Assembly: GCA_044225365.1 (NCBI GenBank)
Contig: JBGAIQ010000018.1
Span: 1-64,000 of the forward strand
Direction of reading: 5' to 3'
Length of the DNA stretch: 64,000 nt
Source: Planctomycetota bacterium
GTDB taxonomy: Bacteria; Planctomycetota; B15-G4; JADJEK01
Positions 412 to 44,792 of this stretch are shown piece after piece (position 1 is the stretch's first letter; the number at the start of each line of letters is the position of its first letter). Made by a program: the position numbers and the translations under genes. The notes below the pieces were generated by a model. The model had not been told where the DNA came from and did not search any database. It worked only from the letters and a program-made list of their open reading frames with translations.

Positions 412-504
412 TGGCGGAGAGGGAGGGATTTGAACCCTCGGGACAGGTTTTGCCCACCCACACGCTTTCCAAGCGTGCTCATTCGACCGCTCTGACACCT
501 CTCC
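412..504 (-). tRNA. tRNA-Ser (GGA)
   Basis: GGAGAGG acceptor stem, anticodon arm CACGC-TTGGAAA-GCGTG, long variable arm, GTTCAAATC T-loop, encoded CCA. Confidence 0.97.
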
Positions 505-544
505 GGATTGGATCGTTGTTGCGTTGTCCGTCAGACGAAAAAAG

Positions 545-635
545 TGGCGGAGAGGGAGGGATTTGAACCCTCGGAACCGGAAACCGATTCATCGGTTTTC
601 GAGACCGACCCATTCGACCGCTCTGGCACCTCTCC
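545..635 (-). tRNA. tRNA-Ser (CGA)
   Basis: GGAGAGG acceptor stem, anticodon arm TCGGT-CTCGAAA-ACCGA, long variable arm, T-loop, encoded CCA. Confidence 0.97.
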
Positions 636-758
636 GCACTCTGTCTGACTGAAAGTCGTTGTCTCTGTTCGTGTCGACCGCGGACGCCGCCACCGCCGAC
701 TCGAAGCCTAGTCTAATCGCGGCGCTCCGAATCGCATCGAAACATCGCGCCTCGGACG

Positions 759-1310
759 CTACTCGTCCAGCCCGCCCGGACCGCCTGAGCGGCCTGGACG
801 CTTGCGCCGGCGTTCGAAGAACTCGCGCATCAGGCGCGACGCTTCGTCCGCGAGCACACCGCCACGTACCTTCGCGCGATGATTGAGGCGCGAATTGCGC
901 AACACCTCGATCACCGAGCCGCAGGCTCCGGCCTTGGGATCCGGCGCGCCGAAGACGACCCGCCGCAACCTCGACCAAACCGCTGCACCCGCGCACATCG
1001 GACACGGCTCCACCGTCACGTAGAGGGTCGCGTCCGACAGTCGATCGTTCTCGAGCGCCGCCGCGGCCTGCGTGATCGCGAGCATCTCCGCGTGCGCCGT
1101 GGGATCGCGCAGCACCACCATTTGGTTGTGCGCCCGACCCACCACCGTACCGGCCGACACGATCACCGCGCCGATCGGCACTTCGCCCGCTTCGAATGCT
1201 TGCTGCGCGAGCCGCAGAGCGAGCGCCATGAAACGCTCGTCGCCGAGCGCTTCCGCGTCGCCCTCGCCGTGGGTTGCTTCCCGATCGTCGTCGAACTCGC
1301 CCGACGTCAT
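759..1310 (-). CDS. tadA: tRNA adenosine(34) deaminase
   Basis: GEVPIGAV, HAE and EPCPMC zinc-deaminase motifs, FF at C-terminus. Confidence 0.95.
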   Translation of the reverse strand: MTSGEFDDDREATHGEGDAEALGDERFMALALRLAQQAFEAGEVPIGAVIVSAGTVVGRAHNQMVVLRDPTAHAEMLAITQAAAALENDRLSDATLYVTVEPCPMCAGAAVWSRLRRVVFGAPDPKAGACGSVIEVLRNSRLNHRAKVRGGVLADEASRLMREFFERRRKRPGRSGGPGGLDE

Positions 1311-1449
1311 GGAACGCAGCCTCGTCGAGCGCCTCGCACGAAAGCCAAGTACGGAACTCCTCTCATGATCGAACGTGGCCCGTCGTGACGGACCTCGACT
1401 CGCTCATGGCGCGGTGCGACCCCAACACGGGTCCCTCACCGCTGATGTC

Positions 1450-1526
1450 TGGTACACCCGAGAGGACTCGAACCTCTAACCTACGGCTTCGTAGGCCGTC
1501 GCTCTATCCAGTTGAGCTACGGGTGC
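1450..1526 (-). tRNA. tRNA-Arg (ACG)
   Basis: GCACCCGTAGCTCAACTGGATAGAGC...ACGGC-CTACGAA-GCCGT...GGTTCGAGTCC...CCA. Confidence 0.97.
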
Positions 1527-1764
1527 TCGTGTGTTTGCGGCAGCCTTTTCAGACTGCACAGCAAAAGCGCGGTGTTTTACGGGTCTCGTGAGATCGCGTC
1601 AAGAGCGGCGCGGATTCGCAGGCGCGCAATGTCTTCGCGCGGCGTTCGTCGTCACGCGGGGCTTCGAAAAAAAAATCTCACAAATCGTTCAAGACGACTC
1701 CGGATGCCACCGATTCTCCGAGTGAGGGTGTTCCTCTTTCGTTTTCCTCACTCAAGGAGTTCTC

Positions 1765-1830
1765 ATGGCCGCGAAAAAGAAGGCCAAGAAGGCCGCCAAG
1801 AAGGCCAAGAAGGCCGCGAAGAAGAAGTGA
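1765..1830 (+). CDS. 21-aa Lys/Ala-only basic mini-protein (MAAKKKAKKAAKKAKKAAKKK), histone H1-like repeat
   Basis: AAGGAG at 1754-1759, 5 nt before ATG; mostly AAG/GCC/GCG codons; followed by hairpins; below the ORF-track size cut-off. Confidence 0.75.
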   Translation: MAAKKKAKKAAKKAKKAAKKK

Positions 1831-1891
1831 CTTCTCGCGCTCCGTGACTACGGAGCTCCAGTGGTTCGACACAATCGGCTGCTGGAAAGCA

Positions 1892-1957
1892 TTCAGGCAA
1901 GGCAGAGGCGACGTCGCTCGTGGATCGAGGGCGTCGCCTCGCTGCTTGCATGCTGAA
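1892..1957. terminator. Long GC-rich hairpin between convergent genes (probable bidirectional terminator)
   Basis: GAGGCGACGTC...GGCGTCGCCTC core with flanking TTCAG/CTGAA pairing. Confidence 0.5.
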
Positions 1958-1963
1958 GCGAAT

Positions 1964-3136
1964 TCAGATCGCGCGCAGGAAGAAGCACTTCAGGTAGCGC
2001 GACTCGGGAAGCTGCAGCAGGATCGGGTGGTCGATGTCCTGCTGGCCGCGTTCCTGGAGCACGAACGATCGCCCGGCGTCCGCCGCGGCGGCGCGCAGCA
2101 TGTCCTCGAAGAGCGGCTCGTCGACCTGGTAGGAGCACGACGCACTCACCAGGAGCCCGCCCTCCTTCAACAGCTTCATCGCGCGCAGATTGATCTCGCG
2201 ATAACCGCGCAGCGCATCGTCGCGTTCGGCCTTGTTCTTCGCGAAGGCCGGCGGATCGAGGACGATGAGGTCGAAACGCGCATCCTCCTTCACCATCGCT
2301 CGGAGCCGGTCGAACGAGTTCGCGCGCTCCGCGACCACGTTGGAGAGACCATTCCGCGCCGCGTTCGCGGCGATGCGCTCGACCGCGCTCTTCGAATCGT
2401 CGAACGCGAGCACGCTCCCGGCTCGCTTCGCCGCATGGAGAGCGAATCCTCCGGTGTACGAGAACGCATCGAGCACGCTTCCGCCCTGCGGCACGAGTTC
2501 GCCCGTCCGAATGCGATTCCTGCGCTGATCGAGGAAGAACCCCGTCTTCTGCCCCGCCGTGAGCTCGACCTCGAACTCGATTCCGTCCTCGTTCACCACC
2601 GTCTTCTCGATCGGCTCGCCCGCGAGCCATTTCACTTCGAGCGGCAGGTTCTCGAGCTTGCGGACGGACACGTCGTTGCGCCCGAGCACCGCTTTCACAC
2701 CCGGGATCTCGAGCGCCCACTTCGTGAGGTCGGGCAGCATGAGCTCGATGAAGTGCGAGAGACTCTGAAGGACGACGACCTCCGCATAGCGGTCGACGAT
2801 GAGACCTGGGAATCCGTCGGCCTCCGACGAGATGAGACGAGCGGCGTTCGACACTCTGGCGATCGGAGCTCGCCGCGCAACGGATGCGTGGAACCGCTCG
2901 CGCAATTGGTCCATCGTCGGCACGTCGATGTGCTCACCGAAGGCGAGGAAGCGCAAAGCGATCTTCGAATCGGCCGAGTACGCCGCGAACCCGAGCTGGC
3001 GCCGATCGACGTCGACGACGCGAACGATCGCCCCCGACGTCGCCACGCCGGTCTCGATCTGATCGCGGAACACCCAGGGATGGCGCCCATCCGCACGACG
3101 ACGACCCCGCGCACGCAAACGGAATTCAGCGATCAC
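1964..3136 (-). CDS. rlmI: RlmI/YccW-family SAM-dependent 23S rRNA m5C methyltransferase
   Basis: PUA-like HPWVF N-terminus, GQKTGFFLDQR, LDAFSYTGGF, DPPAF, SCS, PESRYLK motifs; start approximate. Confidence 0.85.
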   Translation of the reverse strand: MIAEFRLRARGRRRADGRHPWVFRDQIETGVATSGAIVRVVDVDRRQLGFAAYSADSKIALRFLAFGEHIDVPTMDQLRERFHASVARRAPIARVSNAARLISSEADGFPGLIVDRYAEVVVLQSLSHFIELMLPDLTKWALEIPGVKAVLGRNDVSVRKLENLPLEVKWLAGEPIEKTVVNEDGIEFEVELTAGQKTGFFLDQRRNRIRTGELVPQGGSVLDAFSYTGGFALHAAKRAGSVLAFDDSKSAVERIAANAARNGLSNVVAERANSFDRLRAMVKEDARFDLIVLDPPAFAKNKAERDDALRGYREINLRAMKLLKEGGLLVSASCSYQVDEPLFEDMLRAAAADAGRSFVLQERGQQDIDHPILLQLPESRYLKCFFLRAI

Positions 3137-3782
3137 GAAACCACTCCTCACAATCGAAATCGTCGAGCGAATCGAGCACTTGGTCGGCGAGCGAGAGATC
3201 GAGGCCTTCCGTCGCCTCGGTGCGCACCCCGACGACGCGCATGCCGGCGGCGCGCGCCGCGAGGATGCCGTTCGGCGCGTCCTCGATGACGAGGCAGTTC
3301 GCGGGATCGATGCCCCGACTCTTCGCCGCGAATAGAAAAAGATCGGGGGCCGGCTTGCCGCGACCCACCTGCTTCGCCGAGAACAGGCCGCTGAAGGACG
3401 AACGAAGCCCGAGCGATCGAACGATCGCCTCGATCAACTCCGGAGGCGACGACGACGCGACGACGGTGTCGACGCTCCGCACCTTGAGTTGCAGGATGAG
3501 CTCGCAGACGCCCGCATTCGGCTCGAGGCCGGCGCCGAGGAGTTCGAGCAATTCCGCGGTCTTCGCGCGCGCGTAGTGGCCAACGTCATGAAGGAGCCGG
3601 TGCTCGCGCTTGAGGATCTCGAACATCATCTCGTCCGTGTTCCCGAGGAATCGCTGGACGCCGCGAGGATCGAGAACGACCCCTTCCGCGGCGAGGACGC
3701 GGTTCAGGGCGTCGAGATGGATCGGCTCGGTATCGGCGAGGACGCCGTCCATGTCGAAGAGGACGAGATCGATGGAGCTCAT
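3126..3782 (-). CDS. HAD-family phosphatase (beta-PGM-like)
   Basis: FDMDGVLADT, ASS, KPAPDLF, EDAPNGI motifs. Confidence 0.9.
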   Translation of the reverse strand: MSSIDLVLFDMDGVLADTEPIHLDALNRVLAAEGVVLDPRGVQRFLGNTDEMMFEILKREHRLLHDVGHYARAKTAELLELLGAGLEPNAGVCELILQLKVRSVDTVVASSSPPELIEAIVRSLGLRSSFSGLFSAKQVGRGKPAPDLFLFAAKSRGIDPANCLVIEDAPNGILAARAAGMRVVGVRTEATEGLDLSLADQVLDSLDDFDCEEWFRDR

Positions 3783-44039: not shown

Positions 44040-44792
44040 ATGAACTTCATCGCCTGCGTGAAACGCGTTCCGGCGACCGACACGCAAGTGCGGGTCGGCA
44101 AGGACGGTCGATCGATCGATCCCGCATGCGCCGCGAATTACGTGGTCAATCCGTACGACGAGTTCGCCGTCGAGGAGTGCCTTCGACAGAAGGAAAAACA
44201 CGGCGGAACCGTGACGGTCGTCTCGCTCGGCGCACCCGAAGCGAAGAAGGAATTGACCGGCTGCCTCGCCGTGGGCGCGGACGACGCCGTGCTGATCAAG
44301 GATGCGGCGATCCAGCGCGACGCACTGTCGACCGGCAAACTCCTCGCCGCGCAGCTGAAGACGATGCCGTTCGACGTCGTCTTCTTCGGCAAGCAAGCGG
44401 TCGACCACGACAACGCGCAGGTCGGTCTCGTCGTCGGAACCCTCCTCGATCTGCCCACGCTCTCGGAGGTCGTCAAGGTCGAGATTGCGGACGGCAAGGC
44501 CACGGTGCACCGCGAATTCGAGGGCAAGACCGAGATCTGGGAGGTCTCCCTGCCCTGCGTCCTCACCGCGCAGAAGGGCCTCAACGAGCCGCGCTATGCT
44601 TCGATGAAAGGCATCATGGCGGCAAAGAAGAAGGTCATCAAAGAGGTCGATGTCGCGAGCGACGCCGGCCAACTCGAAGTCCTCGCCATGGAACCGCCGC
44701 CGCCGCGTCCCGCGGGCCGGATCGTGGGCGAGGGTGTTGCCGCAGTTCCCGAACTCGTTCGACTCCTGCGCGAAGAAGCCAAGGCGCTTTGA
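44040..44792 (+). CDS. etfB: Electron transfer flavoprotein beta subunit
   Basis: CVKRVP, NPYDEFAVEE, GKQAVD, NEPRYASMKGIMAAKKK. Confidence 0.95.
   Translation: MNFIACVKRVPATDTQVRVGKDGRSIDPACAANYVVNPYDEFAVEECLRQKEKHGGTVTVVSLGAPEAKKELTGCLAVGADDAVLIKDAAIQRDALSTGKLLAAQLKTMPFDVVFFGKQAVDHDNAQVGLVVGTLLDLPTLSEVVKVEIADGKATVHREFEGKTEIWEVSLPCVLTAQKGLNEPRYASMKGIMAAKKKVIKEVDVASDAGQLEVLAMEPPPPRPAGRIVGEGVAAVPELVRLLREEAKAL

Follow-up and report, generated by a model that had tools for sequence, protein, structure and literature searches.

A 21-codon gene for a lysine/alanine peptide beside tRNA-Arg(ACG) in a planctomycete: a candidate stand-alone histone-tail-like polycation

Lysine/alanine-rich tails are known DNA compactors in fusion with HU, Ku or H1. 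The DNA studied here (the window) is a stretch of 64,000 nucleotides, positions 1 to 64,000 of contig JBGAIQ010000018.1, from the assembly GCA_044225365.1 of a Planctomycetota bacterium. In the spacer between its tRNA-Arg(ACG) gene and an rlmI-like gene lies a reading frame in which such a tail makes up the whole of a 21-codon gene. Two questions arise from this locus, namely whether the frame is a gene and, if so, what a peptide of lysine and alanine could do in the cell. We find that it is a 21-codon gene overlooked by gene finders, and the evidence assembled below makes us quite confident that positions 1765-1830 hold a conserved and expressed coding gene. We further consider the proposal that its product acts as a free polycation on nucleic acids.

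The reading frame and its conservation

The predicted product, MAAKKKAKKAAKKAKKAAKKK, consists only of lysine and alanine after the initiator methionine. It has 12 lysines (11 AAG and one AAA codon), eight alanines (six GCC, two GCG) and no arginine, with a calculated mass of 2256 Da and a calculated pI of 11.0. The ATG at 1765 is followed by GCC GCG AAA AAG AAG, and the last sense codon, AAG, by the stop codon TGA at 1828-1830. As alanine is the sole residue besides lysine, the peptide is without signal peptide, hydrophobic face or hydrophobic core. When the genome (6.53 Mb, 65% G+C) was scanned for lysine density in all six frames, its densest 15-residue window, with nine lysines, was located in this ORF, the runner-up frames having eight. 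All three frames of the AAG-GCC repeat are open, and an open frame alone is therefore no evidence; the case for a gene is made by the kept start, the Shine-Dalgarno sequence, the composition and the position.

The Shine-Dalgarno sequence AAGGAG is separated from the ATG by 5 nt (ttctc), and all six of its bases can pair with the 3' end of the 16S rRNA of this genome (...CACCTCCTTTCT). AAGGAG is rare at -18 to -4 in this genome, being present in 46 of 5236 long ORFs, as against 11 for a control window further upstream. The first-pass annotation of this DNA had described an ORF with a strong AAGGAG at 5-nt spacing and 12 lysines in 21 residues, and both the sequence and the 16S pairing bear out that description.

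In a first comparison, carried out by blastn of positions 1527-1963 against 41 relatives, the AAG/GCC repeat was matched in many places, while in five genomes of the same family the match extended about 90-105 nt upstream of the ATG. Further loci were found through the tRNA-Arg(ACG) of the remaining family members. An ORF starting with MA(A/V)KKK was thus located at the same site in 10 family genomes belonging to seven genera. The other two of the 12 family genomes are fragmented metagenome-assembled genomes (88% and 84% complete) with only other tRNA-Arg isoacceptors, and their tRNA-Arg(ACG) locus was not recovered. The order tadA, tRNA-Arg(ACG), small ORF and convergent rlmI was found in 10 of 10, one contig stopping before rlmI. 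Persistence of the ORF and its Shine-Dalgarno sequence in relatives had been fixed beforehand as the test by which the gene would stand or fall, and ORF, ATG and AAGGAG are all kept in 10 of 10; the synteny beside tRNA-Arg and tadA, to be looked for in relatives, was likewise present at each of the ten recovered loci. Identity of the flanking proteins has fallen to about 60% (57-65% for RlmI and 60-67% for TadA, compared to the copies of this genome), and the tiny gene has been kept across genera in spite of it.

The ortholog lengths are 19, 20, 20, 20, 21, 34, 34, 38, 48 and 95 aa. All are repeats of K/R with A/T/V, for example MAAKKKAKKKAAKKAGKKKK and MAAKKKATKKKATKKKVAKKK..., and some carry a few arginines. 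AAGGAG and ATGGC are invariant among the orthologs, 5-9 nt apart. In three within-genus pairs, identity was 0.92-1.00 over the coding sequence (CDS), 0.69-0.95 over -60 to -1, 0.61-0.77 over -120 to -61 and 0.51-0.59 over -240 to -121. Because identity falls in this manner from the CDS into the upstream spacer, the CDS is the most constrained part of the spacer.

We also examined whether the gene is present in RNA libraries. Words from positions 1400-2400 were shared by 20 sequencing runs, including five RNA libraries, and four of the RNA runs (X16, X17, X18 and X20) were compared. The sediment run X16 yielded a 190-nt contig over 1732-1901 with two differences, and the freshwater run X18, from another study, a 160-nt contig over 1733-1892 with the same two differences (1862 T>C, 1863 G>A); neither run had depth at 1536-1705 or 1910-2045. 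X17 and X20 gave near-identical contigs over the tRNA-Arg (1400-1542 and 1446-1528). Pieces over rlmI were few and less alike, with 6 and 8 differences in 52-67 letters among the longest records listed. Within those longest records, the near-identical contigs coincide with the two units predicted to be short and highly expressed, which is moderate evidence for expression. Both contigs over the tiny gene begin at 1732/1733, right after a GGGTG motif, and so hint weakly at a 5' end there or slightly upstream. Neither the gaps in contig cover nor the low word shares of runs X11-X20 are a sign of absence or of habitat.

The four metatranscriptomes showed high depth at 1774-1841, which was discarded as evidence for this gene, as the contigs concerned are 85-95% alike and represent K/A repeats of other organisms. 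Hundreds of such contigs lie on the AAG/GCC repeat in X16, X17, X18 and X20, and most of the listed length differences are of 3 nt. In environmental RNA, coding sequences with K/A repeats from other organisms seem to occur commonly.

Signals and neighbours of the gene

The features of the locus are given in Table 1. In the alignment of the ten orthologs, the A-rich run and TCAAG were kept in 10 of 10, with the preceding bases near TCG(C/T) in most (1685-1693 here). The CACCGAT motif, or C-N-CCGAT, is placed constantly 14 nt past TCAAG. The block is probably part of a promoter, to judge from its resemblance to a UP-like A-tract and a -35-like element, and the leader behind this putative promoter looks short and pyrimidine-rich, with a sequence CGTTT(C/T)CC kept in most orthologs just before AAGGAG. 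A scan with the sigma-70 consensus gave no site, and the conserved motifs were not matched to -10 or -35 elements. A promoter regulon was considered and set aside, since [CT]TCAAG-N14-CNCCGA[TA] occurs nine times in the genome without pattern; a hidden Markov model (HMM) built from the ten upstream regions matched this locus alone (next best E = 0.61).

Table 1. Positions of the tiny gene, its signals and its neighbours in the window
Feature	Position	Strand	Basis or remark
tadA (tRNA adenosine-34 deaminase)	759..1310	-	beyond tRNA-Arg(ACG)
tRNA-Arg(ACG)	1450..1526	-	divergent from the tiny gene
A run (9 A, 1667-1675), then AAATCGTTCAAG (1682-1693)	1667..1693	+	alignment of 10 orthologs
CACCGAT motif	1708..1714	+	CCGA invariant and spacing constant in 10/10
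Leader hairpin GAGTGAGGG ... CCTCACTC	1720..1753	+	folding; T-rich loop with CGTTTTCC (1740-1747)
GGGTG motif	1726..1730	+	alignment; 11-12 nt past CCGAT
Near-identical RNA-library contigs	1732..1901		X16 record 6 and X18 record 19; two studies
Shine-Dalgarno AAGGAG	1754..1759	+	invariant in 10/10 orthologs; complements 16S 3' end
CDS of the tiny gene, 21 codons and TGA, MAAKKKAKKAAKKAKKAAKKK	1765..1830	+	ORF reading; syntenic orthologs of 19-95 aa
Two small hairpins of the 3' untranslated region	1839-1856 and 1857-1886	+	folding; lineage-specific
Long GC-rich hairpin between convergent genes	1888..1954		folding
RlmI-like 23S rRNA (cytosine-C5) methyltransferase	1964..3151	-	NF053718, E = 1.9e-113; convergent with the tiny gene
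Next gene beyond the RlmI-like gene	3126..3782	-	opposite strand to the tiny gene

The leader hairpin is not conserved, RNAalifold finding 0 consensus pairs in the ten aligned leaders, and tRNA was the sole Rfam match in 1300-2200. The idea of a conserved leader fold or riboswitch was dropped on these two grounds. The region 1700-1965 of this genome folds strongly (z = -6.4), and none of 200 shuffles folded equally well. The three 3' hairpins of the first-pass annotation were all found again, with the third shifted to 1888-1954 from the 1892-1957 given there. No ortholog has a counterpart of the two small ones, and the idea that they are copies of a palindromic repeat of the CACGGAGG type found in this genome was dropped, as each of the two sequences occurs once in the genome. 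A strong GC-rich hairpin is present 20-70 nt past the stop codon in 10 of 10 orthologs, followed in several (G003, G005, G006 and G008) by a T-run. The hairpin at 1888-1954 has no T-run on the plus strand and was not flagged by the terminator scan; it is probably a terminator, possibly one that serves both convergent genes. With a strong hairpin behind the stop codon in every ortholog, the most fitting reading of the structured 3' region is that of a terminator region and not of a separate RNA element.

The description of the tiny gene as a stand-alone unit divergent from tRNA-Arg proved right: the tRNA gene lies on the minus strand, and no co-directional gene was found downstream. A leader peptide or attenuator has a co-directional gene to control; here, both genes that follow (1964-3151 and 3126-3782) are encoded in the opposite direction. 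A 481-aa plus-strand ORF at 1844-3289 has no family match and is antisense to the methyltransferase gene. The RlmI-like protein scores under the curated cut-off of its model, and its assignment is at the level of family only. In a search for relatives with this neighbour as the query, the genome contigs returned were from distant phyla only, the best at 46% identity. On the far side of tadA are two tRNA-Ser genes (block 412-1526, minus strand). Bacterial TadA edits tRNA-Arg(ACG), and tadA directly adjoins that tRNA gene in a block which, with the two tRNA-Ser genes, is kept in all 10 orthologous loci.

Relatives in the phylum and comparison with known families

Similar genes elsewhere in the phylum were counted with the pattern MAAKKKxxK in 401 sampled genomes, the reversed pattern serving as control. 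The pattern gave 65 matches in 44 genomes and its reverse none, and all 65 were inspected. Polycation-only ORFs of at most 50 aa accounted for 11 matches (families f1, f38, f47 and f59) and longer polycation-only ORFs, of 128 and 155 aa, for two; nine were look-alikes, judged by eye, of the DUF1931 histone with the K/A tail as N-terminus, and the remainder were either unrelated or longer proteins whose N-terminal tail is rich in K/A. The tiny polycation genes that were checked (f1, f38 and f59) each have their own Shine-Dalgarno sequence and terminator hairpin. Their neighbours are cutA1 in f59 and genes for a Zn-dehydrogenase and an enoyl-CoA hydratase in f38. In genome G132, an HU gene (PF00216, E = 4e-29) is directly preceded, on its own strand, by a 128-aa gene made purely of K/A/T/V/R (L033:798-1527, minus strand). 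The 128-aa gene has the look of an HU tail with a gene of its own; the search around this pair took in the order of G132, which comprises four fragmented genomes only. A second MAAKKK match in the window, at 44616, is internal to a 250-aa ORF (44040-44792) that appears by eye to be an electron-transfer flavoprotein, and is irrelevant here.

The same genome carries a second tiny polycation gene at C100:27889-27969 (L143:290-370), encoding the 26-aa MAVAKKASKAKASSKKPMASKKAKKK. This gene has a Shine-Dalgarno sequence and a terminator hairpin, and it shares synteny with a 25-aa gene present in each of the three genomes of another genus. It is located behind the gene of an RluA-type pseudouridine synthase and ahead of one whose product contains a sigma-70 region 2 domain. 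DUF1931 is a bacterial histone-fold family, and the genome has a homolog of its own at C14:30721-30924 (L142:322-525). This protein has 68 aa and begins with a short stretch rich in K; over residues 8-67 it matches the solved structure 9qt0 (DUF1931 domain-containing protein) with E = 3e-16. Its relatives in the phylum have longer MAAKKK... K/A tails and make up the nine DUF1931-like matches mentioned above. Bacterial histones are dealt with in PMC10627809, PMC11390915 and PMC12701072.

In many larger proteins of the phylum, unrelated domains are preceded by an N-terminal MAAKKK... tail, 20-70 residues long and rich in lysine and alanine (loci L041-L044, L046-L050, L176, L179, L181, L183-L188 and others), and the tail is, it seems, a module often added to proteins of this phylum. 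At C13:25755-26252 (minus strand) a frame ends in a very basic, short C-terminal part (…MSKDRGAQKRETKKPKKDAAKGKKK) with a look-alike in the relative locus L014, and it may represent a further small basic gene family. In the genome at large, 18 PSD1 (DUF1553) domains were present, compared to none in 14 control genomes, in keeping with a planctomycete host; DUF1559 (PF07596), tried as a second marker of planctomycetes, had no match in the genome, nor in the control genomes, and so carries no information on the host.

Comparison with known families was made in several ways. No Pfam family was matched at E up to 10 by MAAKKKAKKAAKKAKKAAKKK and five relatives of 25-95 aa, a result in which composition filters may hide matches. 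NCBIfam, ribosomal-protein models included, likewise gave no match at E up to 10 for MAAKKKAKKAAKKAKKAAKKK or the five relatives, with a single exception: NF038053, the Burkholderiales H1-like model, gave 7 bits (E = 6.3, cut-off 80) for the 48-aa relative and nothing for MAAKKKAKKAAKKAKKAAKKK. HMMER scoring with the 48-aa ortholog found none among 1983 word-sharing candidates at E up to 1, which says nothing on novelty. With the 21-aa peptide as query, a protein search of the order lacked sensitivity, and even the self-match reached only E = 0.45. In the ESM Atlas, the nearest entries to the 38-aa ortholog were unnamed clusters of hypothetical proteins of 31-40 aa (0.96-0.97). The nearest cluster bearing a Pfam domain had HC2 on 17% of its members at a score of 0.89, a lead only, with low recognition value.

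The closest likeness in composition is to lysine/alanine-rich proteins that bind DNA. Hc2 is extremely Lys/Ala-rich and condenses DNA by charge, with a length well over 100 aa. Hc2/HctB (PF07382) shares with the present family the short Lys/Ala-rich repeats, the variable length and the lack of a globular domain; however, neither the 21-aa peptide nor the five relatives match PF07382, and the chlamydial Hc1 and Hc2 differ further in that no developmental cycle is known for this host. AlgP and BpH1 are much longer than the 21-aa peptide. The tails of mycobacterial HupB/MDP1, Ku (PAKKA), HBHA, Pseudomonas AlgP and Bordetella BpH1 have the same Lys/Ala-rich composition, and charge-driven DNA binding is probably shared with them. 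Those tails are fused to folded domains. The present gene encodes nothing but the tail and has a promoter region, Shine-Dalgarno sequence and terminator of its own; its repeat contains no proline. Excerpts of PMC10810275 describe the Lys/Ala-rich disordered tail of MDP1/HupB as needed for DNA compaction, and excerpts of PMC3553676 describe the PAKKA repeats of Ku as modulating DNA binding.

The C-terminal domain of eukaryotic linker histone H1 is, like the peptide, a K/A-rich disordered polycation, but H1 has a winged-helix domain, for which 21 residues leave no room, and S/TPKK motifs, which are missing here. Trypanosomatid H1 is a tail-only chromatin protein without a globular domain; the 21-aa peptide is 3-4 times shorter, and there is no sign of common descent. 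Protamines are Arg-rich, while the peptide has no arginine and some orthologs have a few, and the label "protamine-like" used in the first-pass annotation was thus too loose. Thx, bS22 and bL37 are very small basic ribosomal proteins of fixed length and specific, conserved sequence. The peptide resembles them in size and charge and differs in being a variable repeat of 19-95 aa without an NCBIfam match. By these comparisons the peptide would fall outside the Hc2, H1, protamine and ribosomal-protein families, its resemblance to them being probably one of composition and presumed physics; kinship to low-complexity polycations such as Hc2 would in any case lie beyond what sequence can establish. 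The peptide is a minimal, stand-alone form of the known histone-H1-like Lys/Ala polycation theme.

Proposed function and its alternatives

The gene, its conserved translation signals and its presence in RNA libraries are the observations from which we start; the function of the product is read from its composition. On balance we lean towards the peptide being a polycation that stands alone, resembles a histone H1 tail and binds nucleic acids, with the nucleoid as its most likely target. According to this proposal, 1765-1830 would be a separately transcribed and strongly translated gene for a 21-residue peptide without fold-forming sequence, among the smallest of a length-variable, tail-only polycation family of 19-95 aa. 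Such a peptide would act by charge alone, binding the phosphate backbone without sequence preference, and charge neutralisation would bring about compaction or bridging of the nucleoid. The DUF1931 bacterial histone of the genome could act beside it. It is presumed in all this that the peptide accumulates, binds DNA and affects the nucleoid. Binding to a polyanion is proposed because 12 positive charges stand on 21 residues with no hydrophobic core, signal peptide or partner gene. The five-fold range of length at constant composition suggests that the function is governed by charge and valence, and not by a fixed pocket. DNA is favoured because of the MDP1/HupB and Ku tails, the tails on DUF1931 homologs and the 128-aa member beside HU.

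Several considerations weigh against a role in the nucleoid. Composition is the one ground from which that role would follow, and no HMM family was matched, HC2 and Burkholderiales H1-like included, so that kinship to the studied DNA-binders is unproven. Translation of the tiny gene is predicted. Assembled contigs carry neither strand nor level, DNA may be present in RNA libraries, and the RNA runs were picked for words that they share with this stretch. Both tiny genes of the genome adjoin RNA-modification genes (tadA and the rlmI-like gene in one case, the RluA-type gene in the other), a hint at ribosomes or RNA as the target. Cells contain more polyanion in the form of RNA than of DNA, and a free peptide with 12 positive charges need not prefer DNA.

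The last two considerations belong to the main rival explanation, in which the peptide is real but acts on RNA as a ribosome-associated polycation or RNA chaperone, screening the charge of rRNA and tRNA in folding, assembly or hibernation. In 10 of 10 loci the gene sits among tRNA-Arg, tadA, two tRNA-Ser genes and the rlmI-like gene, and basic ribosomal proteins as small as Thx, bS22 and bL37 exist. Ribosomal proteins, however, fit fixed pockets of the rRNA, whereas the orthologs are of low complexity and run from 19 to 95 aa, and no ribosomal model of NCBIfam was matched. As the neighbouring genes are on the opposite strand, the tiny gene is not co-transcribed with the RNA-modification genes, and the neighbours elsewhere (cutA1, Zn-dehydrogenase and enoyl-CoA hydratase, HU) are unrelated to translation. 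We consider an RNA-directed function unlikely, although the data are compatible with DNA and with RNA as the target.

Charge-driven binding is not specific for nucleic acids, and the peptide might bind another polyanion or surface, such as polyphosphate, acidic lipids or envelope polymers, or be an exported cationic antimicrobial; the DNA runs that share words with the locus are labelled as bioreactor and activated-sludge metagenomes. This is pure speculation and improbable, as signal peptide and hydrophobic face are both missing, and no transporter, immunity or polyphosphate gene adjoins in the contexts examined.

Still less probable is a function of the RNA itself, or of the act of translating a poly-Lys ORF, as a sensor or regulatory RNA with the peptide as by-product. 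The strong fold of the transcript in this genome and the conservation of the CDS within genera, even at synonymous sites, would suit such a function. There is, however, no co-directional downstream gene to regulate, the leader is without consensus pairs and without an Rfam match, and the 3' hairpins, except for the terminator-like one, are lineage-specific; moreover, the five-fold change in ORF length with composition kept indicates selection on the peptide. That there is no gene at all, only a chance ORF of 21 codons in an AAG/GCC-rich spacer open in three frames, is hardly credible in view of the synteny in 10 of 10, the invariant Shine-Dalgarno sequence and ATG, the peak of conservation on the CDS, the terminator hairpin and the RNA-library contigs, and the absence of this exact sequence and its nine relatives from a collection of 15 billion proteins is what is expected of very short ORFs below the length limits of gene callers.

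Returning to the polycation proposal, the condensed nucleoids of the group give it a wider setting. Such nucleoids have been described for the PVC group, as given in excerpts of PMC3177640. A literature search that covered few subscription journals turned up no report of lysine-rich nucleoid proteins in Planctomycetota, and a search for tail-only or unannotated lysine-rich small proteins gave nothing relevant. A broader view, which we hold to be doubtful, is that free histone-tail peptides are a missing and abundant class of planctomycete chromatin protein that, together with DUF1931 histones and HU, gives rise to condensed nucleoids; gain and loss of repeats, between 19 and 95 aa, would then tune compaction. 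If true, K/A peptides would be a bacterial counterpart of protamines or of tail-only H1, hidden by gene callers and composition filters. Genes of this kind fall under the limits of gene callers and are missed by HMMER-based searches. If abundant, the peptide would be a candidate neutraliser or compactor of DNA or RNA in Planctomycetota.

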